In this document: positions 3,492 through 44,761 of the stretch, in pieces
Position numbering within the stretch: the first letter of the stretch is position 1
How the letters are laid out: every line of letters starts with the position of its first letter
Assembly (NCBI RefSeq): GCF_965214065.1
Contig: NZ_CBDCAT010000024.1
Coordinates: 5,345 to 69,344 of the forward strand
From: Candidatus Poriferisocius sp.
Lineage (GTDB): Bacteria; Actinomycetota; Acidimicrobiia; Acidimicrobiales; Bin134
DNA: 64,000 nt
Reading direction: 5' to 3'
Notes under the pieces: model-generated
What the model was told of the DNA's origin: nothing
Database searches by the model: none
Seen by the model: the letters and a program-made list of their open reading frames with translations, nothing else
Made by a program: the position numbers and the translations under genes

Positions 3492-4391
3492 CTAGAAGTG
3501 GTAAGGGAACTGGGAGAAATCGGCGTCGCGCTTTTCTAGGAACGAGTCCCGCCCCTCGGCAGCCTCGTCGGTGCCGTAGGCCAGGCGGGTGGCCTCGCCG
3601 GCGAACACCTGCTGGCCCACTAGGCCGTCGTCGATCAGGTTGAAGGCGAATTTCAGCATTCGCTGGGCGGTGGGGCTCTTGGCGTTCACCGCTGCGGACC
3701 ACTCCAGCGCGGTCTGCTCCAGCTCGGCGTGGGGCACCACCGCGTTGACCATGCCCATCTCATAGGCCTCGGCCGCGGTGTAGGCCCTGCCGACGAAGAA
3801 CACCTCCCGGGCCCGCTTCTGGCCCACTTGGCGGGCTAGGTAGGCCGATCCGAAACCGCCGTCGAAGCTGGCCACATCGGCGTCGGTCTGTTTGAACATG
3901 GCGTACTCGGCTGACGCCAGGGTCATGTCGGACACGACATGCAAGCTGTGGCCGCCGCCTGCTGCCCACCCTGGTACCACCGCTATCACCACCTTGGGCA
4001 TGAAGCGGATGAGCCGCTGCACCTCCAGGATGTGCAGCCGCCCGGTGCGGGCACCGTCAACCGTGTCGGACGTCTCCCCGCTGGCGTATTGGTAGCCGTC
4101 GGCTCCCCGGATTCGCTGGTCGCCCCCCGAGCTGAACGCCCAGCCGCCGTCGGTCGGCGAGGGACCATTTCCGGTGAGCAGCACGGTTCCCACATCTGGG
4201 CTCATGCGGGCGTGGTCCAGAGTGCGATACAGCTCGTCAACCGTGTGGGGCCGAAAGGCGTTTCGCACCTCCGGCCGGTCGAAGGCTATTCGCACGGTGG
4301 CCTGGTTCACGGCTCGGTGATAGGTCACGTCGGAGAGGTCGAACCCCTCCACCGGATTCCACAGCCCGGCGTCGAACAGCTCCGATACCAT
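3492..4391 (-). CDS. menB: 1,4-dihydroxy-2-naphthoyl-CoA synthase
   Basis: 299 aa crotonase fold with MenB-typical FRPHTV, AFSSGGDQRIRG and a C-terminal FLEKRDADFSQFPYHF tail. Confidence 0.9.
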   Translation of the reverse strand: MVSELFDAGLWNPVEGFDLSDVTYHRAVNQATVRIAFDRPEVRNAFRPHTVDELYRTLDHARMSPDVGTVLLTGNGPSPTDGGWAFSSGGDQRIRGADGYQYASGETSDTVDGARTGRLHILEVQRLIRFMPKVVIAVVPGWAAGGGHSLHVVSDMTLASAEYAMFKQTDADVASFDGGFGSAYLARQVGQKRAREVFFVGRAYTAAEAYEMGMVNAVVPHAELEQTALEWSAAVNAKSPTAQRMLKFAFNLIDDGLVGQQVFAGEATRLAYGTDEAAEGRDSFLEKRDADFSQFPYHF

Positions 4392-8290: not shown

Positions 8291-8365
8291 GCCCACGTAG
8301 CTCAGTCAGGACAGAGCAGGGACCTCCTAAGTCCAAGGTCGCAGGTTCGAATCCTGCCGTGGGCG
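8291..8365 (+). tRNA. tRNA-Arg (anticodon CCT)
   Basis: Hand-folded cloverleaf. Acceptor GCCCACG/CGTGGGC, D stem GCTC/GAGC, anticodon loop CTCCTAA, T arm GCAGG-TTCGAAT-CCTGC. No encoded CCA. Confidence 0.9.
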
Positions 8366-8368
8366 CTT
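8346..8368 (+). repeat. attL core (tRNA 3' end) of GI-1
   Basis: Identical 23-mer recurs at 21480-21502. Confidence 0.85.
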
Positions 8369-8492
8369 CCGGGTGTTCTCAGCAGTTGCTCGATGGTCCC
8401 AGTTGATCTCTGTTGTCCCAGCTTAGCGACCGTTTCTGTCAGTTCAGGGTGGTAGGCTGTTCTCAGCAATTGCCGGGCTATCCCCCAGAAAG

Positions 8493-8512
8493 TGGGGGAT
8501 GGATTGGGGGAT
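8493..8512 (+). promoter_or_regulatory. Direct TGGGGGAT repeats (12-bp phase), candidate integrase arm-type sites
   Basis: TGGGGGAT at 8493 and 8505, immediately 5' of the integrase ATG. The same motif pair occurs at 21408/21420 and 44652/44664. A diverged triplet TGTGGGAC/TGTGGGAC/TGGAGGAC lies at 27418/27430/27442. Confidence 0.5.
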
Positions 8513-8516
8513 GGGA

Positions 8517-9669
8517 ATGTCGCTTTTGACCGCTGTAGAAGTCAAGAACGCCGGTGTGGGAAAGCGCCATGACGGGCGCGGATTATTTCTGCGGGTGTAC
8601 AAATCGGGGTCGAGGTGCTGGGTTCTGCGCCTGACCGTGGACGGGCGCCGCCGAGAGATCGGCTTGGGCGGCTGGCCCGCGGTGGGCCTGGCCGATGCCC
8701 GCCGCAAAGCGCACGAGCACCGCGTGGCCGCCGCCGACGGGCGCGATCCGCTCGCCGACAGGCGCCGCTGCGACGTGCCGGTGTTCAGAGAGGCGGCGAG
8801 GATCGTGTGGGAGGCGAACAGGGCCCGGTGGCGCAACGAGCGGACCGCGACTTTGTGGTGGGCGTCGCTGGAGAACCACGCCTTTGCGGCCATCGGCGAC
8901 ATGGCCGTGGACCGCATCACCCAGTCCGACGTTTTGGGGTGTGTGGAGCCGATCTGGACGACGCGCACTGAGACGGCCCGCAAGGTCCGCCAGAGGATCC
9001 GCACCGTGTTGCGCTGGTGCCAGGCCCACGGCTATGTAACAGTGAACGTGGCCGGCGAGGTCATCGACGGCGCACTGCCGCCCATGCCGCGCGTAAAGGC
9101 CCACTTCCGCTCCCTGCCCTATGTCGAGGTCGCCGACGCGCTCGGCGTGGTGGACCGCACCGGAGCATCGGCGTCGGCCAAGCTGTGCCTGCGCTTCGCC
9201 GTGTTGACCGCGGCCCGCTCTGGGGAGGCCCGCAACGCCTCATGGTCAGAGATCGACTTTGCCGCCAGCGAGTGGCGCATCCCCGCCGACAAGATGAAAG
9301 CCGCAACCGAGCACCGGGTGCCCCTCAGCGACGCCGCCCTCGACCTGCTCGACCGCGCCAAAGACAACCACGACGGCTCCGATCTGGTGTTCCCCTCCCC
9401 CCCTCAGAGCCGGCCGCCCACTGTCGAACATGACGCTCACGAAAATCCTTCGCGACGCCGGCCTCGCCGACCGTGCCACCGTCCACGGATTCAGAGCCAG
9501 CTTCCGCACCTGGGCACTGGAGCAAACCGACACCCCCTGGGCAGTCGCAGAAGCCGCACTGGCCCACGCCCTCGGCGACTCAACCCAACAGGCCTACATC
9601 CGAGGCGACGCCTACACCAAACGCCGCCAGCTCATGGACCAATGGGCCCAATACCTGCAACAGCCATAG
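8517..9669 (+). pseudogene. P4-type tyrosine integrase (DUF4102 arm-binding N-terminus), frameshifted
   Basis: Collinear with the intact paralog at 27453..28610. The frame breaks at a C7 run (9397-9403); with C6 it would read FPSPLRAGRPLSNMTLTKIL like the paralog. The C-terminal catalytic part (HGFRASFRTW, QQAYIRGD) lies in frame +1 (9430..9669). Confidence 0.85.
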
Positions 9670-9690
9670 AAGGGCCCCGGCGGGCTGACC

Positions 9691-11094
9691 GGGTCTGTCA
9701 GATTTTTTGTGTATGCGGGCGTGATGGTTTTCATTTGATGTGGTCGGCGATCCGGTCGCCGTAGTGGACGGTCAGCGTGTTCAGTATGGCCTTCCAGCCG
9801 TTGGTCTTGCCGGTGAGGTTGCTGCGGTTCTTTCGTTTGGCGGTGGCGACAAGGTAGAGGATCTTCATCGCGGCCTGCTCGTTGGGGAAGTGCCCTCTGT
9901 GCCGGACCGCTCGTCGGAACCGGGCGTTGAGGCTCTCGACGGCGTTGGTGGTGTAGACGACGCGGCGCAGCTCGGCGGGGAACTCCAGGAACGGTGTGAA
10001 CTCGGTCCAGCTGTTGCGCCAGGCTCGGATCATGGCCGGGTAGGTGTCCTCCCAGTCTTCGGCGAAGGCCTCGAAGAGTGCCTCGGCGGCCCCGACGGTG
10101 GGGGCGGTGTAGATCTCCCGCATTGATCGGGTGATCGGCCCCCTGTGCGTCTTGGACGCGTACCTGAGGCTGTTGCGGACCATGTGCACCACGCAGGTCT
10201 GCACCACCGCGTCGGGCCAGGTGGCGCGGATCGAGTCGGGCAGGCCTTTGAGCCCGTCGCAGCACACGATCAACGCGTCGGCCAGGCCCCGGTTGCGGAG
10301 CTCGCCCAGCATGGCCGCCCACTGCTTGGCGCCCTCGCCGCCCGATGGGCCCAGCCACAGGCCCAAGACGTCGCGCTCGCCTTGGAGATCGACGCCGATG
10401 GCGACATAGACGGGCCGGTTCGCGACCTGCGAGTCGCGGACCTTGACCACTATCGCGTCGATCAGCAGAACCGCATAGACCGCGTCGAGGGGGCGGTTCT
10501 GCCACACGGCCATGTCGGAGACGATCTCGTCGGTGATCTTCGAAATCGTCTCCCTGCTCACCGAGGTGTCGTAGATCTCGGCCAGGTGCGCCTGGATCTC
10601 GCCGGTGGTGAGCCCCTTCGCATAGAGACTGATCACGTTGCCCGACAAACCGTCCAAGCGGCGCCGGTGCTTGGGCACCGTGACGGGCTCGAACGTCCCC
10701 GCCCGGTCGCGCGGCACCCGAAGGTCGATCTCGCCGATCTCGGTGGTGACCCGCTTGGGCGAAGAGCCGTTGCGCGAGTTCCCCGACCCCCGGCCCTCCG
10801 GGGCGTGGCGCTCATAGCCCAAATGGTCGGCCATCTCGACCTCCAAGCCCGTCTGGAGGACCTGGCGGACAAGCCCCGTCAACAGCCCCCCGTCGCCGGT
10901 CAGATCCACGCCATCGGCGCGGGCCCGCTCGACCAACAGCTCGGCCCAGTCCTGCATCGCCGCCTCACCGGCGGCCTCGTCCGCCGACACCGCCGGCATA
11001 TCCTGATCAGTCATAGACATGATCCTTCCCGGCCCGCAGCACCAAACCGCGGACCCTCAGATCACGCCCGATACACAAAATTCCTGACAGACCC
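9691..11094 (-). mobile_element. IS256-family insertion sequence
   Basis: Imperfect terminal inverted repeats of about 34 bp: GGGTCTGTCAGATTTTTTGTGTATGCGGGCGTGAT (9691-9725) versus the reverse complement of 11061-11094. No obvious 8-bp target duplication. Confidence 0.85.
9731..11020 (-). CDS. IS256-family (Mutator-type) transposase
   Basis: 429 aa, typical IS256 transposase layout including CCDGLKGLPDSI. Confidence 0.9.
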   Translation of the reverse strand: MSMTDQDMPAVSADEAAGEAAMQDWAELLVERARADGVDLTGDGGLLTGLVRQVLQTGLEVEMADHLGYERHAPEGRGSGNSRNGSSPKRVTTEIGEIDLRVPRDRAGTFEPVTVPKHRRRLDGLSGNVISLYAKGLTTGEIQAHLAEIYDTSVSRETISKITDEIVSDMAVWQNRPLDAVYAVLLIDAIVVKVRDSQVANRPVYVAIGVDLQGERDVLGLWLGPSGGEGAKQWAAMLGELRNRGLADALIVCCDGLKGLPDSIRATWPDAVVQTCVVHMVRNSLRYASKTHRGPITRSMREIYTAPTVGAAEALFEAFAEDWEDTYPAMIRAWRNSWTEFTPFLEFPAELRRVVYTTNAVESLNARFRRAVRHRGHFPNEQAAMKILYLVATAKRKNRSNLTGKTNGWKAILNTLTVHYGDRIADHIK

Positions 11095-12169: not shown

Positions 12170-13255
12170 ATGACATTTCCAGTCGGGGGCATCGACCCCC
12201 ACCAAGACACCTTCACCGTCGGCATCGTCAACCGCCACGGCGTCGAGATCGTCTGTGAGACCTTCTCGAACACCGCGGCCGGCTACGGCGAGGCGATCGA
12301 TTTGCTCGACTCTCACACCGTCCGCCAGGTCGGCGTCGAGGGCTCGGCCAAATGGGGAGCGCACGTCGCGATCGCGTTGTGCGCGGCAGGGTTCGACGCC
12401 CGCGAGGTCCCCGCGTCGCGCTCAGCGGCCCAGCGCCGCTCGCGGCGCCTGGAAAAGACCGACGCCGTCGACGCGGTCGCCTCAGCGCGCGCCTTGTTGG
12501 CCGAGCCCGAGCTGGGACCCGTCCAAGCACTGGAGGTCTACGACCCGCTCGTCGCCGAGATCGAAGCGGTGCTCGAGCACCGCCGAGCCCTGGTAGCAGC
12601 CAGAACACTCATGCTGCACCACACCGCCGACCAGATCTCCAAGCTCCCCACCGAGGTCCGCGACCAGCTCGACACCGGCGGCAAGATCGAAGGCCGGCTA
12701 CGGCGCCTCGAACACATCGACCCCGCTTGTGCGGCCACCCCCTCGGGCGCGTACCGGCTCGCATGGCTCCAGAACTTCATCGACCAAGACCGCGCCGCCC
12801 GCAGCGAGATCCGCCGATTGGAACGGCTCATCGACGAGCTGCTCGACCGTCACGGCACCACCCTGCGCGACGAACCAGGCATCGGCCCCATCTCAGCAGC
12901 CACCCTGGTGTGCGAGGTCGGAGACCCCCACCGGTTCGGCAGCGAGTCCAAATTCGCCCGCTGGTGCGGCACCGGCGCCGTCGCGCTTTCCTCCGGTGAA
13001 GGCACAGGCAACCCAATCAAACACCGCCGCGACTTTCGGGGCAACCGGCGCATCAACAGCGTGCTCCACATCGCGTCGGTCACCCAGGCCCGACAACAGC
13101 CTGACGCGGTCGCCTACCTCGCCCGCAAAGCCGCCGAAGGCAAGACCCGACGCGAAGCCCGCCGAGCCCACAAACGCCACCTCGCCAACCGCGTCATACG
13201 CCGAATGTGGCGCGACGAACAAACCCGAAAACAACCCCTCGCACACGCCGCTTGA
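12170..13255 (+). CDS. IS110-family transposase (DEDD recombinase)
   Basis: 361 aa. N-terminal GIDPHQDTFTV DEDD motif and a C-terminal Transposase_20-like region (IPGIGP-type EPGIGPISAATLV). Confidence 0.9.
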   Translation: MTFPVGGIDPHQDTFTVGIVNRHGVEIVCETFSNTAAGYGEAIDLLDSHTVRQVGVEGSAKWGAHVAIALCAAGFDAREVPASRSAAQRRSRRLEKTDAVDAVASARALLAEPELGPVQALEVYDPLVAEIEAVLEHRRALVAARTLMLHHTADQISKLPTEVRDQLDTGGKIEGRLRRLEHIDPACAATPSGAYRLAWLQNFIDQDRAARSEIRRLERLIDELLDRHGTTLRDEPGIGPISAATLVCEVGDPHRFGSESKFARWCGTGAVALSSGEGTGNPIKHRRDFRGNRRINSVLHIASVTQARQQPDAVAYLARKAAEGKTRREARRAHKRHLANRVIRRMWRDEQTRKQPLAHAA

Positions 13256-14146: not shown

Positions 14147-17080
14147 TCAGCTGCAGCGCTCCACCTCGGTATCGCCTATTTTGTTCTTCTCGCCCTTAGG
14201 CTTTGCCTGAGTGCCGATGTCATACCAACCGGCGCTGGGAACTTCGAACTCCGCCGACGCGCCAGCAGCTTCAGGCCTGTTCTCGTGATGCCCGCCGCTC
14301 TTGATCTCCGTCACCCACACCTGAACCGGCAGGTTCGCCGGAGACTTGGCCCAAGACACAGAGATTACCCAAGCAGAACTCGTCCGCGAACACGAGACCG
14401 ACTCGAATACCAGTGACGCCCTAGGCGTCGGTGTCGGCGTAGCGGTTGGCGTCGGCTTGGCCGGAGAAGCGGTACCGTCTATCCAATTCGAGAACCCTCC
14501 GGCGTTGAAAGCCGCCACTCTCACCTCATAGGGCGAACCGTTGGAAAGCCCCGTAATCGTGTGCGAAGTGGCCAGATCCGAGCCGTACTCTAGATCCTTG
14601 TATTGGGCGGCTGCCTCGGCCTGGTCCCACGTCTGGGAGGCCTGCTTCCACTGCACCTGATATCCGAACTCCGCAGCCGGCGTATCCGACGACGCCGTCC
14701 AAGAAACCTTTATCTGCTTGTCTCCAGCAGTCAGCAACAAATCCGAAGCAGGTCCAGGAGGGTTCGAAACTGTATCATGCTTGGAATCCCCAGAAGTGTC
14801 GTCAGGATTAGGGGTTGGGGTTGGGGTTGGCGTGCGGAATGGAGGCGGCGGTGTAGGCGTAGCGTCTGGGTTGGTGCTAAGTGCATCGCAGGCCTTTTCA
14901 AGGAACTCGCCCAAGAACAGGCTGCCTGCAAGTTCGTAGAGAGTCTTATAGGGGCTATTGCTAACGTAGTTGATGGACATGCCAGTAACATTCGATGCAG
15001 TGAACTTGCCGTCTGAAGTACAACCCGACTTGAGTATCGCGTCTTGATGTGTGCCGTAGTTGCTTCGCCGTCGCGAACACTGATATTCGAGCGCTTTGTC
15101 AATTATGTACGATGTTCCTATAGCGACGTAAGCGTTTCCACCAGTGAACACTGTAGCTCCTAGTGTAACCAAGTTTTCTGTTAGGAATTGCCCTGTCTCG
15201 GTGCAGATAGCCTTCATTGTTGCGTCATATGCTGTTTTCAAACCGTCCGAGATGGTCTCGCCTATGTCAATGAACACATTTAGGATATTTCCAGTTGTAC
15301 CCTTGTCTTCTATGGCCTTATAGCAATCATGGTTATTGTCTAGTTGTTCCCACTCACCAGGATTGGCAGAGGCAACTTTTCCGCTCTTGTAAAATTCGTT
15401 CAGTTGTTCGTGTGTCATGACTTCAGGAGTTGCAGATGTATACACGAAGTAAATTAATGGTAGTGGTAGTGACAAGTTTTGGTATCCCGCTGGGCAGTTG
15501 TGCGGGTCGTGTTTGGTGGTGGTTGTGTGTGGTTTGCGGTCTGTGGTGGTTGTGACGCATTTGTTGTCGGCGTTGGGGGGTGTTTCGTCGTCGCATGTGT
15601 AGGTGACTCGTTGTCTGTGTATGCATTTGGTGCCTGACAATCTACTGTCTTCGTCACAGGTGTAGGCGGGCCGGGTTTTGCATTTGGTGCCTGACCGGGT
15701 GCTGCCTTCGTTGCATGTGTAGGCGGGCCGGGTTTTGGTGGTGCATTCGTTGTCGGTGTTGGGGGTCGAGTTGTCGGCGCATGTGTAGGTCACCGACGAG
15801 GGAGGGCGCGTGTGGACGCATTTGCCGGCCGACTCGTCTCCTATTTTGCATTCCGGGTCGGTGTAGGTGGTCTTGATGCAGTAGTCGCCCTGGAGGGTTT
15901 CGCCGCTGTCGCAGTCCGGGTCGGTGTAGGTGGTCTTGACGCAGTAGTTGCCCTGGAGGGTTTCGCCGCTGTCGCAGTCCGGGTCGGTGAGGGCTGTGTC
16001 TGTGCATCTATTGCCCGACAGGGACCCTTTCGCGCATGTCGGGTTTGTCCGGCTGGTGGTCGTGCAGGTGCCCCGGTTGGAGTCGAGGGCAGCCGCGCTC
16101 GACGTGCAGTAGGGGGTGGCGACGGTGTGCCGGTAGCAGAAGTCGCCTTTCTTGCTGTAGCCGCTGGGGCAGACCTTGCTGGTTGAGGTTTGAGCGGACA
16201 CGTTGATGCAGGCTCCCCAAAGAAGAACGTATCCCGCTGGGCATTGGGCCACCTGAGTTTCTACGCAAACGGGGATGCCGAAAGCCCCGGTGCCGAGCTT
16301 GCCCGAGGCGCACCGCCATGACGCCGCGGTGGTCGTGGTGGTGACGCACTTGCCGTTTCGCAGGCTGCCGCTGGCGCAGATCGGAGTTCCGGTATCTACG
16401 GTGGTTGCACACTTGCCGAACACCAAGTTGCCGCTGGCGCACGTGGCGACCTCGGAGGTGGTGGTGGCGCACTTGCCGTTTCGCGGGCGGCCGCTGGCGC
16501 AGGTCGCTATCTCGGAGGTGGTGGTGGCGCACTTGTTGTTGGAGTTGGGGGGCGACCCGTCGCCGCAGGCCGGTGTTCCCACGGTGCGCTCGCATACTTC
16601 CAAGACGCTCTGGCCGACGAGGGTGTACCTCTTCAAGTCATAGCCGGTATCGCAGACCGGCGTGGAGATTGCAGGCCTCGTCGTCACGCACCACCCGCTC
16701 TGGTCCGGCACACAACTCGCCTCAGCGTCCGTCACGCACCACCCGTCCTGGTCCGGCACACAACTCGCCTCGGCGTCCGTCTCGGTGACGCACACCAAGC
16801 CATAGTCCGGCACACAACTCGCCTCAGCGTCCGTCACGGTAGTCGTCGTCTTTACACACCGCTCGGCGACCCCAGACGACGGGGCGCTGTCCTCCAGGTC
16901 GTACCCATCGGGGCACGTCGTCACAGTCTCGGGCTCGTGGGCCTGGGCGGCGGGAACAGCGATCGCGCTGAACAAAACAGCAGCCACAACGAACACGACA
17001 AGCCCTCCGGCCCGCCGTTTCCTGAACCCGGCCCCGCTAGCAGTCGGATACGGACGGTGAGGCTTTGTCGATGCGGACAT
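14147..17080 (-). CDS. Large secreted Cys-rich modular repeat protein with FN3 domain
   Basis: Start set at ATG 17080 (AGGAGG RBS). The N-terminal signal/anchor is GGLVVFVVAAVLFSAIAVPAAQA. Three families of Cys-pair repeats are present: TDAEASCVPDxxGWCV, GKCATTTSExATCASG and TYTDPDCDSGETLQGxYC. There is a low-GC central domain, a P/T linker, and an FN3-like region (IKVSWTAS...YEVRVAAFNAGG). Confidence 0.8.
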   Translation of the reverse strand: MSASTKPHRPYPTASGAGFRKRRAGGLVVFVVAAVLFSAIAVPAAQAHEPETVTTCPDGYDLEDSAPSSGVAERCVKTTTTVTDAEASCVPDYGLVCVTETDAEASCVPDQDGWCVTDAEASCVPDQSGWCVTTRPAISTPVCDTGYDLKRYTLVGQSVLEVCERTVGTPACGDGSPPNSNNKCATTTSEIATCASGRPRNGKCATTTSEVATCASGNLVFGKCATTVDTGTPICASGSLRNGKCVTTTTTAASWRCASGKLGTGAFGIPVCVETQVAQCPAGYVLLWGACINVSAQTSTSKVCPSGYSKKGDFCYRHTVATPYCTSSAAALDSNRGTCTTTSRTNPTCAKGSLSGNRCTDTALTDPDCDSGETLQGNYCVKTTYTDPDCDSGETLQGDYCIKTTYTDPECKIGDESAGKCVHTRPPSSVTYTCADNSTPNTDNECTTKTRPAYTCNEGSTRSGTKCKTRPAYTCDEDSRLSGTKCIHRQRVTYTCDDETPPNADNKCVTTTTDRKPHTTTTKHDPHNCPAGYQNLSLPLPLIYFVYTSATPEVMTHEQLNEFYKSGKVASANPGEWEQLDNNHDCYKAIEDKGTTGNILNVFIDIGETISDGLKTAYDATMKAICTETGQFLTENLVTLGATVFTGGNAYVAIGTSYIIDKALEYQCSRRRSNYGTHQDAILKSGCTSDGKFTASNVTGMSINYVSNSPYKTLYELAGSLFLGEFLEKACDALSTNPDATPTPPPPFRTPTPTPTPNPDDTSGDSKHDTVSNPPGPASDLLLTAGDKQIKVSWTASSDTPAAEFGYQVQWKQASQTWDQAEAAAQYKDLEYGSDLATSHTITGLSNGSPYEVRVAAFNAGGFSNWIDGTASPAKPTPTATPTPTPRASLVFESVSCSRTSSAWVISVSWAKSPANLPVQVWVTEIKSGGHHENRPEAAGASAEFEVPSAGWYDIGTQAKPKGEKNKIGDTEVERCS
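15852..15990 (-). repeat. 63-bp in-frame tandem repeat (2.2 copies) inside the surface protein gene
   Basis: Units at 15852-15914 and 15915-15977 differ at 2 positions, plus a partial third copy. They encode the TYTDPDCDSGETLQGxYC modules. Confidence 0.8.
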
Positions 17081-17110
17081 GAGGCGGCCCTCCTGAAGGG
17101 ATCGGAAATG

Positions 17111-17131
17111 CGGCGGATATATGCCTTTATT
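17111..17131. repeat. IR-L of candidate invertible segment
   Basis: CGGCGGATATATGCCTTTATT. Its reverse complement occurs at 17463-17483 with 1 mismatch (20/21). Confidence 0.75.
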
Positions 17132-17462
17132 CGCCGCGTTCAGGCCCCTTGGGATGTGGAAGAGGTCGCTGGGGTTGCGGGCGCGGGACCCGCGCCCAAG
17201 CTGGGGATTCGCCAGACCGAGACGAGCAGCCGGAGCGGTGAGGCGTTCTTGGTCCTGGCTCTGCGGCGGCTGTGCTCTTGGCACCGGCCCCGTGCCGGTC
17301 GGCGTCTTGTGCGTGGCGGGGGGCCTCTTCGCCCAGCGGAGTCGGCCTGCTGGCTCGGTCCCTGTTTTGCCTGGTCGGCGGGGGTATTGCATGTTCGCCG
17401 TTGGGGCTGTGCCGTGTGGTGTTTGGGGAGGGGTTGACAGCATCTCTGGTTCTGAGCTAGGC

Positions 17463-17483
17463 AATAAAGGCATTTATCCGCCG
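17463..17483. repeat. IR-R of candidate invertible segment
   Basis: AATAAAGGCATTTATCCGCCG, the reverse complement of IR-L with 1 mismatch. Both arms translate to NKGIYPP in the ORF track. Confidence 0.75.
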
Positions 17484-17529: not shown

Positions 17530-18621
17530 TTGCACAGCGGGTGTGGGCTAGACATCGGCGGTGAATCCAACCACCACCCCCCCCCCGGCCATATGTGCTC
17601 GCATAGCGCCTCGGATGCCGGTGCTGGTCTTTGCTGTGTCAAGGGGCTGATCGCCCGGGCCGACGCCTCAGCGTTGTCTTTGAACACCCGAAAGACCTAT
17701 GAGACCGGGTGGAACAGCTGGGCCCGGTGGGCGGCGTCGAACGGTTACCGGGTTTCCAAGCCGACAGTCGAGAGGCTCCGGGACTGGCTGGCCTGCCTGC
17801 ATTTGGAGGGGAAGAAGCCCTCTACTTTGCGCACCTACCTGGCCGCTGTCGCCCACCGCCTACGCGGCCGCCGCGGCCCCAACCCGGCCCGCCACCCCCG
17901 CGTTAGCCTGCTGCTGGCAGGGCTTGCCCGCTACGCCGCTGAGCGCGGCGTCGCAACCCGGCAGGCCCAAGGGCTGCGCTGGGAGCGCATACTGCTGATC
18001 GAGGCCGCCGCACCCGCCTCGAGGCGCAATCAGCCCGGCGGGCGGCTGGAAACCCCCCAACAAGCCCGAAAACGCGCTGACACAGACATCGCCATGGCCG
18101 CCGTGGGCCACAACGGCGCCCTCAGGTGCTCGGAGCTGTTGGCCCTCACCTGGGGCGCTGTCGACTTCTCCGAAGGGCCGGGGCTGGCCACCATATGGAT
18201 CGGCCGCTCCAAGACCGACCAGAACGGCAAAGGCGCGGCCGTTCCCATCTCCGAATACGCCGCCCAAGCCCTCGCCCGATTGAGGCCAGAGGACTTCGAT
18301 CCCGACGCCCGCATATTCGATTTCTCGCCCAGCACCGCCCGCCGGCGCCTAAAAGCCGCCGCGAAAGCCGCAGGCATCGACCCCGCCGGGATCTCCACCC
18401 ACTCCCTGCGCGTCGGCATGGCCCAAGACCTCGCCGCCTCAGGAACAGGCACAATCGGCCTCATGCTCGCAGGCCGATGGGACACCACCGAAACCGCCGC
18501 CCAATACGCCCGCCGCCTCCAAGCCCAACACACCCCCGCCGCCCAATACCTCAAAACCCAACTCGCCGTGACAACAGGCCAATCCGAGCCCGGCGAAACC
18601 CGCAGACCGCAGGCAGCGTGA
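17530..18621 (+). CDS. Tyrosine recombinase (XerC/D / phage-integrase family); start uncertain
   Basis: N-terminal SAM-like core-binding region (LSLNTRKTYETGWNSW) and catalytic HSLRVGMAQDL and AAQYARRL (Tyr). Alternative start at ATG 17593. A C10 tract lies at 17577-17586. Confidence 0.8.
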   Translation: MHSGCGLDIGGESNHHPPPGHMCSHSASDAGAGLCCVKGLIARADASALSLNTRKTYETGWNSWARWAASNGYRVSKPTVERLRDWLACLHLEGKKPSTLRTYLAAVAHRLRGRRGPNPARHPRVSLLLAGLARYAAERGVATRQAQGLRWERILLIEAAAPASRRNQPGGRLETPQQARKRADTDIAMAAVGHNGALRCSELLALTWGAVDFSEGPGLATIWIGRSKTDQNGKGAAVPISEYAAQALARLRPEDFDPDARIFDFSPSTARRRLKAAAKAAGIDPAGISTHSLRVGMAQDLAASGTGTIGLMLAGRWDTTETAAQYARRLQAQHTPAAQYLKTQLAVTTGQSEPGETRRPQAA

Positions 18622-18917
18622 CACCCAGCGGCACTGAGTAGGCGGCCGATGGTCTGCAGATTCGCCTGCAAGAACGGGGTCTGGGACGGCTGGGACAACA
18701 TCGATCGAGCTATTGTCGAAGGCGCTGACCGCGTCGCCGCAGCCGCTCTCGCGGAACGCCTCAAGATGGCGAACGCAGGAATCTTCGGTGTCGACTCGGA
18801 AGGCGAGCGATCAGGCAGTCGAGCCCGCGGCGAGGCGGTGGAAGCCGTGCGGAGCCTTGCGTTGGCCCAAAAGAGCGGTCAACACCGAATCGGCTGGTGC
18901 TAGCGCGTCCGCGTCCG

Positions 18918-18966
18918 GACCGGTCGCGTCGCAGGTTGCGCCGGTTTGCGACCGGTTGCGACCGGT
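18918..18966 (+). promoter_or_regulatory. TTGCG(A/C)CCGG repeat cluster upstream of the AlpA-like gene
   Basis: Three tandem direct copies (18936-18944, 18946-18955, 18956-18965) plus one inverted copy (18920-28). Homologous clusters lie at 21179-21259 and 44496-44530. Confidence 0.5.
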
Positions 18967-18979
18967 ATTGCATTGCAGG

Positions 18980-19330
18980 ATGGTGGCCATGGAAGCCGAT
19001 GCTCGTGAAATCCATGAAATCCTGTCGACCCGCCGTCAGGTCGAGGCGCGTGGCGGGCTGTCCACCAGTTCTATCTACCGGTTCATGCGATATGGCCTGT
19101 TCCCAAATCCGGTCCGCGTCGGCAGGCGCGCTGTGCGCTGGCATGTGTCGGAGACCGACGCATGGGTCTCATCGCGCCCCCGCGCCGCCGGCGGCCGCCC
19201 CGCCGCACGGGCAACCGGTTATCCGTGTCGAATCCCGGCGCTAGTGCCGCAAGAGGCGGCCAAGGGCTGGGCTGTGGGGTGGGCAGGCAGCGGCAGCCGC
19301 CAACGGGGAGGCAGTCGGATATGGGCGTGA
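18980..19330 (+). CDS. AlpA/excisionase-family HTH DNA-binding protein
   Basis: MVAMEADAREIHEILSTRRQVEARGGLSTSSIYRFMRYGLFPNPVRVGRRAVRWHVSETDAWV matches the AlpA/Xis winged-HTH pattern (GLSxSxIYR...G.FP.P...G.R.v.W...E...W). Confidence 0.7.
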   Translation: MVAMEADAREIHEILSTRRQVEARGGLSTSSIYRFMRYGLFPNPVRVGRRAVRWHVSETDAWVSSRPRAAGGRPAARATGYPCRIPALVPQEAAKGWAVGWAGSGSRQRGGSRIWA

Positions 19331-19758
19331 GGCGCTCATCGGCGCAGCGGAAGCGCTTGGCGTTGGAGGCGAAGAGGCGCGGCGTTGATGCCGTGGCCAG
19401 ACAGGCTGGCGTCGAGCCCGGCACTGTGCGGGTCTGGCGTGCCGAGTTCGGCGTGGGCATTGGTACCAGGGGCAGCAGCCAGGCTGCGGCCGCTCCTGGT
19501 CACGAGGTTGACTTGCTTGAGGCAGCGGCTTGCGGCCTCGACGACTTCGCGGATTCCAATAGCATCCAAGAAATGGGCGGTTTGGTCAAAAAGGCGGGGG
19601 ACGCGCTGTCTTGTGAGCTGTCGGCTTGGCTTGGCGATGCCGACAGCAGGGAGCTTGCCTCAAAGAGGCTGGGAGAAGTGATCTCCGACTGGGAGGCTGA
19701 GCACGGCGCGGTTACCGCCGAAGAGCTTGACGAGGCGCGGGCCCAGCTCTTTGGATGA
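19321..19758 (+). CDS. HTH protein / putative antitoxin of a degraded PIN toxin pair
   Basis: 145 aa with an N-terminal HTH (VARQAGVEPGTVRVWRAEFG). Its stop overlaps the following PIN ORF start by ATGA (19755-19758). Confidence 0.5.
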   Translation: MGVRRSSAQRKRLALEAKRRGVDAVARQAGVEPGTVRVWRAEFGVGIGTRGSSQAAAAPGHEVDLLEAAACGLDDFADSNSIQEMGGLVKKAGDALSCELSAWLGDADSRELASKRLGEVISDWEAEHGAVTAEELDEARAQLFG

Positions 19759-20939: not shown

Positions 20940-21479
20940 GTTTGTTGCTATCAGCGGCTCACCGATCGCCTCCGAGCCGCCGACCAGCCGACCCCGAACC
21001 ACCCCGCGAAATCGACGGTGCAAGAGCCCCGGTCTGGCCAGCCGCCACGACCCACGGACCGCGATGGCATCGACGGGAAGACAGACCGCCGGGCAGGACT
21101 AGACGGCCCGCCCTTCCCGGTCGGTGACGCGGTGGCCACCTGATCGAGGCAACCGGCCAAACAGGCGAAACACAGGGGCTGCGACCGCTAGCGACCGGTG
21201 TGGGGTTGGCTTCCATGCCCGCAACCATGCGACACCACACCGGTCGCAACCGGTCGCAAGCACACTGAGGATCGGTCGGAAACCTCAGGAAGTGACCGCC
21301 CGGTGTGGGGCAGAGATAGTCGATTGCCGCTGGCCCGCAATGCCCGCCCTCTGATGCCTTACGCTCTTGCCTAGGAACCACCGAAACCTCAATAGCCGGG
21401 ACACCAATGGGGGATAAAGTGGGGGAAGAGCAAGATGCCAGCGCCCGCTTGACTTCTCTACCAGGGTGTTTAGCTAATA

Positions 21480-21502
21480 TTCGAATCCTGCCGTGGGCGC
21501 TT
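21480..21502 (+). repeat. attR core of GI-1 (copy of tRNA-Arg 3' end)
   Basis: Perfect 23/23 match to 8346-8368. Confidence 0.85.
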
Positions 21503-27217: not shown

Positions 27218-27292
27218 GCCCCTGTAGCTCAGTCAGGACAGAGCAGTTGACTTCTAATCATCAGGCCGCAGGTTCGAATCCTGCCGGGGGCG
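27218..27292 (+). tRNA. tRNA-Arg (anticodon TCT)
   Basis: Hand-folded. Acceptor GCCCCTG/CGGGGGC (one G-U), D stem GCTC/GAGC, anticodon loop CTTCTAA, T arm GCAGG-TTCGAAT-CCTGC. The T arm is identical to the tRNA at 8291. Confidence 0.9.
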
Positions 27293-27452
27293 CTTTTTGA
27301 TGTTGCCGGGCTTTTCCGAATGCCCCCGCTAGTGCCCGAAGTCCCAGCGTATCCAGGGTTTTGTCGCTTCGTGGTGGTACACTGTTCCCAGGCTTAACTG
27401 CACAATCCCGCCAAAAGTGTGGGACAGATTGTGGGACGGATTGGAGGACAGG

Positions 27453-28610
27453 ATGGGACATCTCACCGCTGCGAAGGTCAAGGCAGCCGGGCCGGGGAAA
27501 TATCACGACGGGCAGGGCTTGCACCTTCGCGTGACCAACACCGGGTCCAAGTCTTGGTTTTTGCGCCTCACTGTGGACGGGCGGCGACGCGACATGGGTC
27601 TGGGCGGCTGGCCGGAGGTGAGCCTTGTCGATGCCCGCCGCAAGGCTCTGGAGCACCGCACCGCCGCCGCCGACGGTCGCGATCCCGTTGCCGACAACCG
27701 CCGGGGCGAGGCCCCCGTTTTCCGAGAGGCGGCCAAGGCGGTGCTCGAGGCGAACCGGCCGCGGTGGAGGGGCGAGCGCCAGGCGAGTCTGTGGTGGAGG
27801 TCGCTTGAGAACCACGCTTTCCCGGTGATCGGCGACATGAGGGTGGACCGCATCACCCAGTCCGACGTGCTGGGGGCTCTGACCCCGATCTGGACCACCC
27901 GCCCCGAGACGGCCCGCAAGGTCCGCCAGAGAATCCGGGCCGTGCTGCGCTGGGCGATGGCGCACGGCTACGTCGTGTTCAACGTCGCCGGAGAGGTGAT
28001 CGACGGCGCTCTGCCGCCGATGCCCAAGGTGCAGTCGCATTTCCGGTCGCTGCCCTATTTCGAGGTCGCCGACGCGCTCGCCGTCGTGGACCAGACCAAG
28101 GCGTCGCCTTCGGCCAAGCTGTGCTTGCGGTTCTTGGTGTTGAACGCGGCCCGCTCCGGCGAGGCCCGGAACGCAACCTGGGACGAGATCGAGTTCGGGG
28201 CCTGCGAGTGGCGGATACCAGCAGAGCGGATGAAGGCAGCGAGCGAGCACCGGGTTCCGCTGTCGGAGGCCGCAATGGCCGTGCTGGATCAGGCCAAAGA
28301 CCACCACGACGGCTCCGATCTGGTCTTCCCGTCGCCGCTCAAACCGGGACATCCGCTCAGCAACATGACCCTGACGAAAATCCTTCGCGATGTCGGGCTC
28401 GCCGACCGGGCAACCGTCCACGGCTTCCGGGCATCATTCCGCACCTGGGCGCTGGAGGAGACAGACACGCCCTGGGCGGTGTGCGAGGCGGCTTTAGCCC
28501 ACAGCCTGGGCGACTCGGTGCAGCAGGCATACATCCGCGGCGACGCGTTCGCCAAGCGCCGAAAGCTAATGGACCGGTGGGCGCAGTACCTGGAACAGCG
28601 ACAGGGATGA
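27453..28610 (+). CDS. int: P4-type tyrosine integrase (DUF4102 N-terminus), intact
   Basis: Start set at ATG 27453 (GGAGGA RBS). N-terminal arm-binding region is HLTAAKVKAAGPGKYHDGQGLHLRV. Catalytic motifs are HGFRASFRTW and QQAYIRGD. Paralog of 8517..9669. Confidence 0.9.
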   Translation: MGHLTAAKVKAAGPGKYHDGQGLHLRVTNTGSKSWFLRLTVDGRRRDMGLGGWPEVSLVDARRKALEHRTAAADGRDPVADNRRGEAPVFREAAKAVLEANRPRWRGERQASLWWRSLENHAFPVIGDMRVDRITQSDVLGALTPIWTTRPETARKVRQRIRAVLRWAMAHGYVVFNVAGEVIDGALPPMPKVQSHFRSLPYFEVADALAVVDQTKASPSAKLCLRFLVLNAARSGEARNATWDEIEFGACEWRIPAERMKAASEHRVPLSEAAMAVLDQAKDHHDGSDLVFPSPLKPGHPLSNMTLTKILRDVGLADRATVHGFRASFRTWALEETDTPWAVCEAALAHSLGDSVQQAYIRGDAFAKRRKLMDRWAQYLEQRQG

Positions 28611-28793: not shown

Positions 28794-29894
28794 TTACGAC
28801 GTGCAGGCTCCACCGTCGCCGTCGCGGTCTAGCCGGTAGGGGTCTACGCCCGGGACTAGAACGGTGACGGGCTTCTGGTCTGATGTGAGGTCGCCGCAGT
28901 TCAAGGCATCGCCAGACAGGCTGGGCAGGCACGGGCTGTAGGCGGGATGGCAGTCCGAGACGCTTGTTGTCTCGGCGGCTGTTTCCGTTGGCGGCGGTTG
29001 GATCGGCTCTGTTTGGAGGCTGGAGGGGCCTGACGGCTGCATGGGCCCGTCGGCGGGGCAGGCCTGGAGCACCTGTTCCAACGCGTTCTTCTCGGCTTGG
29101 TCTACCGACAGGTCGAATGCGGCTTTTACCTCGACCGTCTTCCAGGCCATGAAGCAGCGGCCCTGTGCAGTTGTCATAAGCCCTTGACATGTTCCGCTGC
29201 CGATCCGCCCGGACCATTCAGCCATGTCCCGCGAACCCTTGGATCGGTTGACGCAGTCGCGTGTCGCCACGAGGTTCAGAGCATCGTTGCCGAACGACTG
29301 GCGGCGGGCGGCGTTCCACTCCCACCCTCCTGACTCGAATGCTTCTTGAGCGGCGACGATGTGGTCGACGTCGCAGGTGGAGGCATCGAAAGCGACCCCC
29401 GTGTAGGGGTCTACGCCTGACGCGTTGCACAGATACCCTCGGTCATGCTCGAAATCGGACCGCTCGTAGCCTGATCCCCCGTACTCAGGCTCGACAGACA
29501 GACTGTCGAGAACGCCCAGCGCTGTTGAACCAGTCGAGGGGATAGCCGCTGCCGAAGGTGTGGCCGGAACAGGCGTCGAGGGGGCGGCTGTAGGGGCAGT
29601 CGCCCCCTCGGTTGGCTCTGCGGTCGGGATCGGTGCTGTCGCGGCGGGAGACGCGGTGGGCGCAGCGGTCGGCTGGGCTGGCGCGGGGGTAGCAGTGGAT
29701 GACGGGGTTGCGGGGGCAACAGCGCCCGGTGTTGGGGCAGCACTTGGAGTCGCAGAGGCGGGCTGGTCAACATCGGCGGTGTCGGCGGCGGTGGCAGTGA
29801 CAGGCAAGGCGGTCGGATCGGGCGCGCCGGTGTCGTCGCTGGTGCCGCAGGCGAACGCAATGAGCGCCGCGAAAGCCGCTGCCGCCATGGTCAT
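28794..29894 (-). CDS. Secreted DUF1524/HNH-like nuclease with C-terminal Excalibur Ca-binding domain
   Basis: Signal/lipoprotein-like MTMAAAAFAALIAFACGTS (start uncertain), a P/A/T linker, CDVDHIVAAQEA...NLVATRDCVNRSKGSRD, and Excalibur DPYRLDRDGDGGAC. Paralog of 39678..40817. Confidence 0.75.
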   Translation of the reverse strand: MTMAAAAFAALIAFACGTSDDTGAPDPTALPVTATAADTADVDQPASATPSAAPTPGAVAPATPSSTATPAPAQPTAAPTASPAATAPIPTAEPTEGATAPTAAPSTPVPATPSAAAIPSTGSTALGVLDSLSVEPEYGGSGYERSDFEHDRGYLCNASGVDPYTGVAFDASTCDVDHIVAAQEAFESGGWEWNAARRQSFGNDALNLVATRDCVNRSKGSRDMAEWSGRIGSGTCQGLMTTAQGRCFMAWKTVEVKAAFDLSVDQAEKNALEQVLQACPADGPMQPSGPSSLQTEPIQPPPTETAAETTSVSDCHPAYSPCLPSLSGDALNCGDLTSDQKPVTVLVPGVDPYRLDRDGDGGACTS

Positions 29895-30060
29895 CCGGGT
29901 TGTTCTCACGAACAGCAAGCTAGAGCCCAGCAGCCACTCGTCTCTCATCACGCAGGCACCACCTTGCCCTGCGAGTTCTCCAGGACTGCGCCACACAGCC
30001 TGGGTTATGCCGCGGGGGTTCATATCGTCTCGAGTTCCCCAGTTCTGTCGGTAGGCTGCA

Positions 30061-31017
30061 TTGGCGCGTCGCCCCGATTTCGTGAGCGATCTGGCTGATG
30101 AGATCGAGCAGTATTTCGACAAGGAGGGCATCCGGCACGAACGAGGCGAGTCGCCAAGTCCTGCGGACCTGCTGGAGCGGTATCTCTATCACTTCGACAA
30201 GGTGATCGTGCCGGGCCCGCGCCGTGTGCATTTCTCGGCTGAGCTCCGCGCCGCACTGGGGACGCTAGACGGCCGCTATGGGACCGCGATCGAGGCCATC
30301 AAGAGCCGCTTCGAAGCGGGAGGCGACCTCGCAGAGTTCCTTAGCAGGAAGGCGGCCGACGCCGGTTTCAAAGACAGGCTGCCGAGCGATTTCGGCATCC
30401 ATCATTTCCATCTCGGAGCAAAATCCGCCCTTAGCGAACGGCATGTGCGGCGCACAGGCGACTTGCTGTTCGTGTTCGTCCAACCCCTCGACGCGTAATT
30501 CCTCGACGTCAGGAAGCACCCAAACGACAGCGATCCCTGCGATTTCGGCTGGTGCGATGTCGACCTGCTGAACATCATCGACTCGAATTGGCCCGAAGCG
30601 TTGGAGCGCTACACCGCGCCCGGCGTCAAAGGAAGCACGCTCACCGACGAGCAGAGAAAAGTGCTGCGCAGCAAGAACACGAACGTCGCCACACAAGTCG
30701 GCGACAAGGTGATCGCGCCGCCAGGGGGCGGCCTTATGGCTTATGGCTCCAACCTCAAGTGCAAATCCCAGGCCATGAGGTTGCTGACCGAGATACGCCG
30801 CATCGAAAAGATATTCGAGGACCACTGGGACGAACGCGAGGGCGCGTTACGGAGTGCCGGCTTCGAAGACCCCGACAGCGCAGACTTGCGACTTGCGCGA
30901 ATCGCCGACTCCAGCGTCCCGCCTTCCCAGCTCAGATCAATGAATGGGGATTTGAGCTGGATCGGCTGGGCGATCGTAGAAGTCTCGACTGGAACCCTCA
31001 TCGACTGGAGCTTCTAG
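30061..31017 (+). pseudogene. Hypothetical 318-codon gene interrupted by one in-frame TAA
   Basis: ORFs 30061..30498 and 30601..31017 are in the same frame. The only stop between them is TAA at 30496-30498, and the readthrough ...FVQPLDA*FLDVRKHPNDSDPCDFGWCDVDLLNIIDSNWPEALERY looks coding. Confidence 0.6.
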
Positions 31018-31556
31018 CGCCAGGAGCGTCTCAACACTCCGGGTCGCTGCAACCCGGCTGATCTGATCCAAATCGCAGGAAGATCATGGGAGTCCTTCCG
31101 CACTTTGGTCCAGGTCGCCGGGGATCTGCTCTACGGGGGCTTCTGGCGTTAGCCAGCCCGGCTGGAGTTGCCAGCTGACGGAAGGAGGGAAGGCATCTGC
31201 GCTCCCCGCACCCCCTGGCAGGACATACCAGCGACGGTCTCAACTACGGCGATCCCACCGCCGACGAAAGGCTTTCGGCCGTTCTTGCACGAGGGGTCGG
31301 CCCGCTTCGGCTCGACTAGGGCGGCGATGGCAGGGCCTGCGATCCTTTAGTCGGTATCGACGCTCAGCGGCAACGAGTGCGGGGTCGTGCGCGGCCTGAC
31401 CGAGAGTTGTCATAGGCCGCTGGTATGTTTCATCGCCCGTGACGCACAGCGCAGCGAGCCCGGCAGGCAGGCCGACGGCCGGCGATCTGCGGGGCCCTGC
31501 CTGCCTGGGCCGAAGCGTCATCGTCTGGGCCGGCCAGCCCGCACCAGAGGGGTGGG

Positions 31557-44177: not shown

Positions 44178-44264
44178 TTCATTGGCCTTTCGGATCAGGG
44201 AACTTCACAGCCGACCACATCCAAGATCGCTGCTGGCGGTGTAAAGAGACTACTGGTGTCCTAT

Positions 44265-44289
44265 GGGACGTTCCTATAGACGTCAAGTG
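44265..44289 (+). repeat. Left direct repeat of internal att-flanked remnant
   Basis: GGGACGTTCCTATAGACGTCAAGTG matches 44737-44761 at 22/25. Confidence 0.6.
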
Positions 44290-44329
44290 AGCATCCCCCC
44301 TTTGGCCGGTCGCCTCGATTGGGAGGTAA

Positions 44330-44482
44330 TTATGTCATTGATGGAAAAGGAGAGGCCGCCGGGCAGGGCCAGACCCAATGTCCAGCCAACAGGAGGAAGC
44401 CCAGCCCACAGCGCGCCTCAAGCCAACGGCGGGCCGACAAGACGATTTGGCAATCACGAATATCGGTTTCCATGGCCACCAT
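44330..44482 (-). pseudogene. AlpA-like gene remnant
   Basis: MVAMETDIRDCQIVLSARRWLEARCGLG matches the N-terminus of 18980..19330. The HTH continuation (SSCWLDIGSG-P) is only in another frame and is truncated. Confidence 0.5.
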
Positions 44483-44736
44483 CCTGCAACGCCATACCGG
44501 TCGCGACCCATCCGCCGACCGGTCGCAAGCCGCCCGATCCCCACTACCAGAAGCACAGCCGCGTCAGCGGGCTCCAGTTCTTCACCGACTGCGGCAGATT
44601 TCGAGGCTCCCTCGGCTTGCCGCCGCCGGCGTCCGGATTACCCCGATAAAATGGGGGATGGATTGGGGGATAGAAGAAACTTTTTGCCGACTCTGGTGGC
44701 TCTACCAGGGATTTTGTCAACTGTTCAAGTCCCAGG

Positions 44737-44761
44737 GGGACGTTCCTGTATATGTCAAGTG
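44737..44761 (+). repeat. Right direct repeat of internal att-flanked remnant
   Basis: GGGACGTTCCTGTATATGTCAAGTG. It is preceded by a tRNA-3'-end-like TTCAAGTCCCAGGGGGACG at the same offset from CTCTACCAGGG as the GI-1 attR core. Confidence 0.6.

Follow-up and report, generated by a model that had tools for sequence, protein, structure and literature searches.

We report that three copies of a short, conserved module lie in a window of high-GC DNA from a metagenome-assembled genome (MAG) of the sponge symbiont Candidatus Poriferisocius (Acidimicrobiia), the window being the whole 64,000-nucleotide stretch analysed here. In each copy, 11-bp units of the type TTGCGACCGGT, set in 10-bp phase, stand at fixed distances from the start codon of an alpA gene or of its remnant. 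The units form a real, conserved cis-regulatory array of a familiar type; what is new is the lineage and the sharply defined motif. We think it rather probable that the units are protein-binding sites making up a promoter-proximal operator, with AlpA as the most likely binder.

Module A (~18936-19060, plus strand) precedes the alpA gene, and modules B (21205-21281) and C (44402-44528) lie on the minus strand (Table 1). All three follow one plan, in which the units are succeeded by 9 nt, a CAnnnT hexamer, 7 nt and ATGGAA. The recurrence on which the initial annotation rested (39 of 42 positions) is reproduced, as 18958-19000 agrees with the reverse complement of 44462-44504 at 40 of 43 positions, and the similarity between modules A and C extends over 127 nt at 77% identity (18936-19060 against 44402-44528; blastn E 1e-21). 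Modules A and B share 42 of 52 positions (81%; 18946-18997 against the reverse complement of 21208-21259). An AlpA reading frame (Pfam PF05930) survives in the 18.9k copy alone, since B stops after four codons and homology in C ends at about 24 codons, and both incomplete copies adjoin the right ends of elements, marked by an attR core (21480-21500) and a tRNA-like 3' fragment (44724-44742), just as had been proposed. The earlier count was two or three units per module; A has two perfect units, a degenerate one and a weak inverted one, and C has lost one unit relative to L001, its closest relative.

Exact copies of the 10-mer TTGCGACCGG occur five times in the window, without exception inside modules (18946, 18956 and, on the minus strand, 21240, 21250 and 44519). 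With one mismatch allowed, the bare 10-mer is not enriched in the window (12 observed against 9.25 expected); the signal resides in exact copies, clustering and register. A weight matrix trained solely on the sites of relatives, with the window excluded, gives 11 strong matches in the window against 3.5 ± 1.8 in shuffled sequence; nine of them fall in the three modules and one at attL (8424-8434). Matches paired within 35 nt number 10 in the window and 1.1 in shuffles.

The same register is preserved in related loci. A scan with one genome per species yielded 30 loci, picked by AlpA protein similarity alone, of which 16, all from Acidimicrobiia / Poriferisocius MAGs, have an intact 5' end and constitute the close set that we aligned without gaps on the ATG (L numbers denote individual loci). 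Units stand at exactly -65, -43 and -33 from the ATG in 16/16 of these, and matrix matches fall at the same offsets. The layout comprises site 1, (T)TCCGACCGG, at -65, the tandem pair TTGCGACCGG-TTGCGACCGGT at -43/-33, nine variable nucleotides, CAnnnT at -13 to -8, a G-rich 7-mer and ATGGA(A/T); the tandem units keep an exact 10-bp period, and site 1 lies another 22 nt upstream, about two helical turns. Unit columns carry 1.65-1.67 bits, compared with 0.75-0.92 in the two spacers and 0.37 further upstream, and are more informative than alpA codon positions 1 and 2. This is a classic phylogenetic footprint.

Units are absent from the remaining 14 of the 30 loci, which are mostly distant AlpA homologues (46-61% identity; Vicinamibacterales, Gammaproteobacteria and others), together with a few partial, 5'-truncated close copies in Acidimicrobiia MAGs. 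Two of the distant loci (46% identity; L031 and L035) carry other phased direct repeats upstream, namely GGCCGCCGGCC(G/C)GTTTC at 21-nt spacing (L031, ~3865-3905) and CGCGGC(G/A)GAAAATCCC at 32-nt spacing (L035, ~3880-3930). Variation of the unit is confined to positions 2-4 and the helix-turn-helix (HTH) residues of AlpA are invariant across homologues, so that the related loci offer no information on covariation between AlpA residues and unit variants. A hairpin at site 1 (CTGAGG...CCTCAG) was considered and dropped, as it occurs only in the tRNA-Arg subgroup and, by eye, shows no compensatory changes.

The comparison also settles where alpA begins. The conserved ATG is the second one, at 18989 (ATGGAA), in agreement with the NCBI annotation; the first, at 18980, which had been included in the proposed conserved start, reads ATAGTG in relatives. 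A cassette consisting of a unit pair, 9 nt, (C/G)AnnnT, 6-7 nt and ATG precedes alpA in all unit-bearing loci. The same cassette precedes a 256-aa VanX-like Peptidase_M15 gene (L011, L012 and L015; Pfam 7e-15), a 324-aa AbiEi-like gene (L020) and a 1542-aa TrwC relaxase/primase gene divergent from alpA (the L002-L006 and L010 element); in the TrwC cassette of L010, on the minus strand, the ATG stands 13 nt past the hexamer. These second clusters of units in relatives lie 1.5-2.3 kb downstream of alpA, or 2.8 kb upstream in L020. A cassette shared by several gene types points to a promoter-proximal operator of an element regulon. The initial annotation had seen a conserved operator/promoter module of the excision-control gene, a view that the fixed offsets in 16/16 loci bear out, except that the module is not exclusive to alpA.

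From its position, the hexamer is a putative promoter element. Leaderless actinobacterial promoters carry a TANNNT hexamer closely preceding the start codon. The constant 6-7 nt from hexamer to start codon across unrelated genes suggests a leaderless mRNA here as well. The units themselves were rejected as a -35 element, because TTGCGA would be placed 14 or 24 nt from the hexamer. A scan for terminators between 18600 and 19400 found nothing.

AlpA is the only gene common to all loci within 4 kb on either side, and the presence of units tracks the AlpA clade. The window protein (18989-19330), which has 100% identity with a Ca. Poriferisocius sp. protein at NCBI, matches Pfam PF05930 (47.3 bits against a cutoff of 21; E 1.9e-12), PHROG 66 and 2790 ('excisionase and transcriptional regulator') and, by sequence, PDB 8C3T ('AlpA family phage regulatory protein'; E 3e-5). 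Its AlphaFold2 (AF2) model has a predicted local distance difference test (pLDDT) value of 77, rising to ~88-91 over residues 11-60, and the elements H15-22, H26-34, E49-52 and H53-62. The best PDB match of the model is the GIsul2 excisionase 8C3T (TM-score 0.86, normalised to target length; root-mean-square deviation 0.9), followed in order by RdfS (8DGL), Pukovnik Xis and BldC. According to this model AlpA is a MerR-like protein with a small winged HTH fold, belonging to the excisionase or recombination directionality factor (RDF) class.

A protein search returned 14 AlpA homologues, every one of metagenome or MAG origin, which share 64-73% of their residues with the window protein and are mostly 73-76 aa long, a few being called with longer N-terminal extensions. 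The full AlpA-like open reading frame (ORF) described for the 18.9k copy is present, but it runs to 19330 and encodes 113 aa from the conserved ATG, with a C-terminal tail that homologues do not share. No AlpA relatives turned up in IMG/VR, the only AlpA match in the GenBank phage collection is a weak one in Pseudomonas phage Itty13, and the module has no match among PLSDB plasmids. Cognate tyrosine integrases are at hand: P4-type enzymes are encoded at 8499-9764 and 27417-28610, and integrase genes lie near alpA in L017 and L026.

The first description of the repeats had named AlpA itself or the integrase as their possible ligand; sequence comparison favours AlpA and speaks against the integrase. 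Besides the units, the attachment (att) regions hold a separate family of repeats (GGGGGAT-type; Table 1), which may be the arm-type sites of the integrase, and TGTGGGAC-type repeats precede the second integrase gene at 27407-27437. The arm-repeat family differs by att type, with three types among relatives (TGGGGGAT, TGTGGGAC and GCCCCCC-type), whereas the CGACCGG unit is unchanged across all three, which makes integrase binding unlikely. That the units are arm-type sites for a P4-type integrase would fit the two module copies in attR arms, the single unit in attL (8424-8434) and the arm-binding domain of these integrases. We nevertheless give this explanation very little credence: a different repeat family fills both arms and changes with att type, the cassette is also found at promoters that are 1.5-2.8 kb away from alpA, as well as in the interval separating TrwC from alpA, and a promoter role is suggested by the constant spacing it keeps from hexamer and ATG. 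Moreover, the unit is essentially limited to one arm and recurs at distant promoters, a distribution that departs from that of integrase arm-type sites.

In 10 of the 16 close loci and in both window stumps, the alpA ATG lies 259-292 nt from the tRNA-derived core. The order in those loci is tRNA-derived core, arm-type repeats (~-200), ~130 poorly conserved nucleotides, units and then alpA, which reads inward; the array is consequently found 200-250 bp from the core, past the putative arm repeats. Given that int is located at attL, the array occupies the arm far from int, like the Xis sites in the lambda prophage. An architectural role of the array in excision is plausible, but is the weakest step of our argument.

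Beyond the family, the motif is not randomly scattered. Across ~260 kb of related loci, strong sites are found almost only in cassettes, with rare singletons outside them. In addition, the exact 20-mer TTGCGACCGGTTGCGACCGG occurs in 31 contigs of Joint Genome Institute (JGI) metagenomes, mostly from soil, and 17 of the 31 have a tRNA-like 3' fragment within 260 nt of it and lack a full tRNA gene; ARAGORN, too, detected no full tRNA beside the soil arrays. Confinement to cassettes in the one set and proximity to tRNA-like fragments in the other link the motif to element ends, and scatter without any tie to AlpA-like genes or element ends, which the initial annotation had named as the outcome that would speak against it, is not what these loci and contigs show. 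Most contigs selected by the 20-mer are short or relic-like. The soil units span ~250 bp, in which a tRNA-like 3' fragment (ATGGTAAGGAGGGGGTCGACGGTTCGAGTCCGTCAGAGGGCT) is accompanied by a unit pair, then ~55 nt, two to three units in an inverted array and ATGGAGCC-type repeats; they are seen in L070-L100 (for example L073 4400-4620, L091 700-960 and L074 1380-1600), where the flanking genes are unrelated between contigs and no AlpA or integrase gene is adjacent. They look like ends of other integrative elements, and may be att-only relics or small non-autonomous elements. The viral contigs L050/L055 and L067 (=L076/L079) have longer arrays of 10-bp period built on this ACCGG core, with TAACGACCGG about five times and TTGTTACCGG/TTGCGACCGG six times, the second of these arrays beside a Cro/YdaS-like HTH gene.

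These data also bear on whether the units have a binding function at all. All unit-bearing loci come from one bacterial class and their AlpA proteins are 65-80% identical, and the number of units varies (one is lost at 44.5k, and L011 has extra ones), as might be expected if the units merely reflected recent kinship or slippage in a promoter sequence. However, the spacers have diverged almost freely while units and register were kept, the cassette is placed before unrelated genes, and the 20-mer recurs in att-like contexts of soil metagenomes with different flanks. We consider such a passive origin most improbable.

How would an operator of this kind work? The tandem pair would cover the -35 region of the presumed leaderless promoter, and AlpA could bind one monomer per unit in head-to-tail fashion and thereby control its own promoter. 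The geometry would favour occlusion, that is, negative autoregulation. By the same token, the operator may wire several element genes to one regulator, and the bound array might additionally help to build the excisive complex, which is the weakest step of the scheme.

Several observations weigh against this interpretation. AlpA binding, the sign of regulation and the role in excision are all steps that we infer. The co-occurrence of AlpA and its sites is partly built in, because loci were chosen via AlpA, and no Poriferisocius-type AlpA was detected near the 20-mer, either by tblastn over 400 nt downstream or with a custom hidden Markov model on all ORFs of 61 loci. With its palindromic core, ACCGGT, the unit could also accommodate a dimer. 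A scan of 18600-19400 found no sigma-70 consensus promoter, and the hexamer begins with C and not with the T of the actinobacterial TANNNT pattern. Regarding excision, starting from the core one meets the arm-type repeats first and the array only after them, which is not the lambda order, and the cassette also occurs kilobases away from any att site. Finally, a distantly encoded or host regulator is possible as the binder.

In its full form, this last alternative holds that the units are operators of another regulator, for instance a master repressor of the element or a protein of the host, and that alpA is just one of its targets. The cassette before four unrelated gene types is what one would expect of a master regulator, AlpA is missing next to the contigs selected by the 20-mer, and a weak HTH protein is encoded after alpA in the window (19162-19758). 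We still judge it improbable: no other gene is common to the loci within 4 kb on either side, the 198-aa HTH protein is present in only five loci, unit presence follows the AlpA clade, and proteins of the AlpA class are known to bind such arrays and to autoregulate.

AlpA as an autoregulatory binder would be in good company. RDF operators consist of direct repeats one helical turn apart that are bound cooperatively and head-to-tail, and Apl, Cox and Vis act both as RDFs and as promoter regulators (PMC7498355). Among the closest parallels are Apl of phage 186 and Cox of P2, small HTH proteins that bind cooperatively, head-to-tail, to direct repeats about one turn apart, at promoters as well as near att; the units described here, with their 10-bp period, likewise occupy presumed promoters and attR arms. 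Apl and Cox are members of another sequence family and serve a face-to-face pair of lytic and lysogenic promoters, whereas the present cassette stands before the RDF gene itself, as well as before genes for cargo and transfer, at what appears to be a leaderless promoter. RdfS binds attP and the -35/-10 region of its own promoter with about one monomer per 10 bp (PMC11963761). This winged-helix RDF of ICEMlSymR7A (Mesorhizobium), which links excision with transfer, ranks second among the structures that resemble the AlpA model (8DGL); in relatives of our locus, the operator also precedes the TrwC relaxase. RdfS differs in having no clear consensus motif, as opposed to the sharply defined 11-bp unit, and its sequence similarity to AlpA is weak (E 0.14).

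CP4-57 AlpA and P4 Vis belong to the same PF05930 family and are paired with a P4-type integrase at a tRNA gene. They are proteobacterial and use other site sequences, while the present system resides in an actinobacterial sponge symbiont, has alpA at the element end opposite int and reuses the operator elsewhere. Lambda Xis also has tandem head-to-tail sites in the attR arm (X1-X1.5-X2), on which it forms a bent microfilament, but these fall between an arm-type site and the core, whereas our array stands 200-250 bp away from the core, past the arm-type repeats, and keeps its register relative to a putative promoter. With regard to the Xis proteins of mycobacteriophages Pukovnik and L5, that of Pukovnik is a structural match to the AlpA model. 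Streptomyces BldC is a small MerR-like protein forming head-to-tail oligomers on direct repeats with one DNA turn per protomer, yet it is a chromosomal developmental regulator and not a mobile-element factor.

The two incomplete copies can be traced to intact ends in relatives. L007 and L013 retain the ancestral arrangement of the end of island 1, the element that carries modules A and B: L007 5881-6143 matches window 21500-21239 at 87% identity and continues as L007 6126-6394 against window 18949-19217 at 77%. What is continuous in L007 is split in the window, where the attR-proximal cassette has retained four alpA codons. The resulting stump of module B meets the inverted end of the segment downstream of alpA at a short string common to both, GTTGGCTT, and for this reason two inverted cassettes (52 nt, 81% identical) bracket alpA and ~2.2 kb. 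The pair at 21179-21199, at the end of that segment, is homologous to a distal pair located 32 nt upstream of the proximal pair in L024 and L011, and now abuts the inverted alpA stump and not a gene. Recombination in a decaying island, an invertible segment or an error in MAG assembly could each account for the bracket. Where the inverted stump meets the distal pair, an imperfect palindrome has arisen (21180-21258), with 25-nt arms that are 31 nt apart and each contain two units and GTGTGG. We discarded the idea that 21208-21259 arose from an L024-like layout by inversion of 57 bp in situ, given that the sequence to its right is an L013-type attR arm and not alpA from codon 5 onward.

Inversion of the 2.2-kb segment between the 52-nt inverted repeats by recombination is conceivable, and one might ask whether the units are themselves recombination substrates, for example target or crossover sites of the second tyrosine recombinase (17530-18621). 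This would explain why inverted modules (18946-18997 and 21208-21259) flank the 2.2-kb alpA segment, and it would be in line with the 52-nt inverted repeat around alpA and its downstream genes, the junction 21208-21217 at the shared string GTTGGCTT, the recombinase gene just upstream, and modules in tandem and in rearranged order in relatives. The palindrome arms, however, are 31 nt apart and unlike a recombinase core site, the recombinase is missing from most unit-bearing loci, and homologous or illegitimate recombination in an island rich in insertion sequences (ISs), or a MAG assembly error, explains the bracket equally well. A role as recombination substrate is therefore very unlikely in our opinion, and we retain the operator as the preferred explanation of the units.

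Module C has a layout nearly identical to the intact end in L001, minus one 10-bp unit. It is part of a ~470-bp relic flanked by imperfect direct repeats of ~33 nt (44258-44289 and 44729-44761), which also holds the left end and orfA start of an IS3-family element (MSLMEKERPPGRA..., 44288-44370), 89% identical to L021 3848-3930. Homology of element ends had been suspected between ATCGAGGCGACCGGCCAAA near 44302-44320 and 21146-21164, but ATCGAGGCGACCGGCCAAA belongs to this IS fragment as its left inverted repeat. On complete MAG chromosomes, several alpA cassettes, full and truncated, lie within 6-12 kb of one another, as in L015/L038 (OZ242356.1, ~1.2186-1.2281 Mb) and L024/L028 (OZ246892.1), which suggests tandem accretion or repeated rearrangement of small elements.

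Table 1. Features of the three modules and of the associated att regions, with coordinates in the window
Position	Strand	Feature	Support
8291..8366	+	tRNA-Arg(CCT)	attL core 8346-8366 inside
8424..8434	+	Single unit TAGCGACCGTT between attL core and int	matrix 13.8 bits
8482..8512	+	GGGGGAT-type repeats abutting int start	repeat family
8499..9764	+	Island 1 P4-type tyrosine integrase (Arm-DNA-bind_3 + Phage_int_M + partial catalytic domain)	Pfam
18918..18928	-	Weak inverted unit upstream of module A; holds GCGACCGG at 18920-18927	exact 8-mer match
18936..18945	+	Degenerate third tandem unit TTGCGCCGGT, one base missing, -53 from ATG	alignment with relatives
18946..18966	+	Module A perfect tandem pair TTGCGACCGG-TTGCGACCGGT, -43/-33 from ATG	matrix 18.6 bits each
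18976..18981	+	Module A -10-like hexamer CAGGAT, 9 nt past last unit, 7 nt before ATG	putative promoter element
18989..19330	+	alpA gene from ATGGAA; AlpA domain end ~19207	Pfam PF05930, fold
21179..21199	+	Distal unit pair CTGCGACCGCT-TAGCGACCGGT, end of alpA-downstream segment	~+2200 from alpA ATG
21205..21216	-	Module B alpA stump, four codons (ATG GAA GCC AAC), then unrelated sequence	
21224..21229	-	Module B -10-like hexamer CATGGT	
21239..21259	-	Module B two perfect tandem units, -43/-33	
21271..21281	-	Module B site 1 TTCCGACCGAT, -65	matrix 14.7 bits; alignment
21407..21428	+	GGGGGAT-type repeats ATGGGGGATAAAGTGGGGGAAG, putative integrase arm-type sites, attR arm	
21480..21500	+	attR core of island 1, TTCGAATCCTGCCGTGGGCGC	duplicates 3' end of tRNA-Arg(CCT), 8346-8366
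44402..44473	-	Module C truncated alpA 5' part; homology to 18.9k copy stops at 44402	
44481..44486	-	Module C -10-like hexamer CAGGAT	
44496..44528	-	Module C units: TCGCGACCGGT 44496-44506 (-33), TTGCGACCGGT 44518-44528 (-55)	matrix, alignment
44641..44671	+	GGGGGAT-type repeats, 90% identical to 8482-8512	repeat family
44724..44761	+	tRNA-like 3' fragment TTCAAGTCCCAGGGGGACG, att-like end	same att type beside alpA in L001, L015, L021

The surroundings of the modules are typical of mobile DNA. An Rfam scan of the window reported only two tRNA-Arg genes, and thus no known RNA element over the modules. Each of these tRNA genes marks the start of a genomic island that encodes a P4-type tyrosine integrase (Arm-DNA-bind_3 + Phage_int_M + Phage_integrase). 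Island 1 begins at tRNA-Arg(CCT) (8291-8366) and reaches to 21480-21500, where the 3'-terminal 21 nt of the tRNA gene are repeated exactly. Its integrase is probably defective and appears truncated or degenerate past ~residue 301, where similarity to intact relatives is lost; an IS256-family (Mutator) transposase gene follows on the minus strand, integrase and transposase together spanning 8499-11020, and an IS110 transposase lies 1.1 kb further on (12170-13255). Island 1 is a decaying, IS-riddled element. The second tyrosine recombinase (17530-18621) lies just upstream of alpA. A 1108-aa Cys-rich ORF on the minus strand (14147-17473) lies in a low-GC patch (0.52-0.57) and contains many internal tandem repeats of 54-63 nt rich in Cys codons and one fn3 domain; its product may be island cargo, namely a repeat protein that is secreted or displayed on the surface.

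Island 2 starts at tRNA-Arg(TCT) (27218-27293), followed by its integrase gene (27417-28610); no attR matching this tRNA was found within the window. It encodes defence functions, comprising two GmrSD-like genes, UvrD-like, HNH and KAP NTPase genes and a Type ISP restriction-modification gene (40875-44177). The two GmrSD_C-like genes (28794-30131 on the minus and 39678-40817 on the plus strand) form an inverted repeat with 75% complementarity over >500 nt that brackets the core of the defence cluster, and the UvrD-like gene is apparently split (31439-33706 and 33298-34068). The HNH endonuclease gene (34850-35783) has 92% DNA identity to L028 5221-6153 (OZ246892.1), where it is inserted within the alpA-downstream segment of another MAG, indicating that cargo modules are exchanged among these elements. 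Elsewhere in the window, an ARAGORN call of tRNA-Ser(CGA) (57361-57440, minus strand) is without Rfam support at the gathering score and falls inside a 2033-aa ORF (52209-58310) with high GC content at third codon positions; it is likely a false positive.

The operator arrangement proposed here is ordinary for elements of this type and does not change existing knowledge of how they work. More tentatively, and with considerable doubt, we raise the possibility that the unit pair and leaderless promoter form a portable cassette of an AlpA-type RDF regulon, covering excision control, TrwC and the VanX-like and AbiEi-like genes, that the CGACCGG code is shared by element ends of distant high-GC bacteria, the soil units combining it with other arm repeats and another tRNA fragment, and that such an RDF could still mobilise gene-less, att-only relics. 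If true, many elements with nothing else in common would share one conserved system of RDF recognition. For the mobile elements of an uncultivated sponge symbiont, the analysis provides a precise cis-element consisting of an 11-bp unit, fixed offsets and a candidate leaderless promoter. With the weight matrix, element ends of the alpA type and genes under element control can be located in related MAGs, and a motif this sharp could make the system a convenient model of how winged-helix RDFs read DNA.

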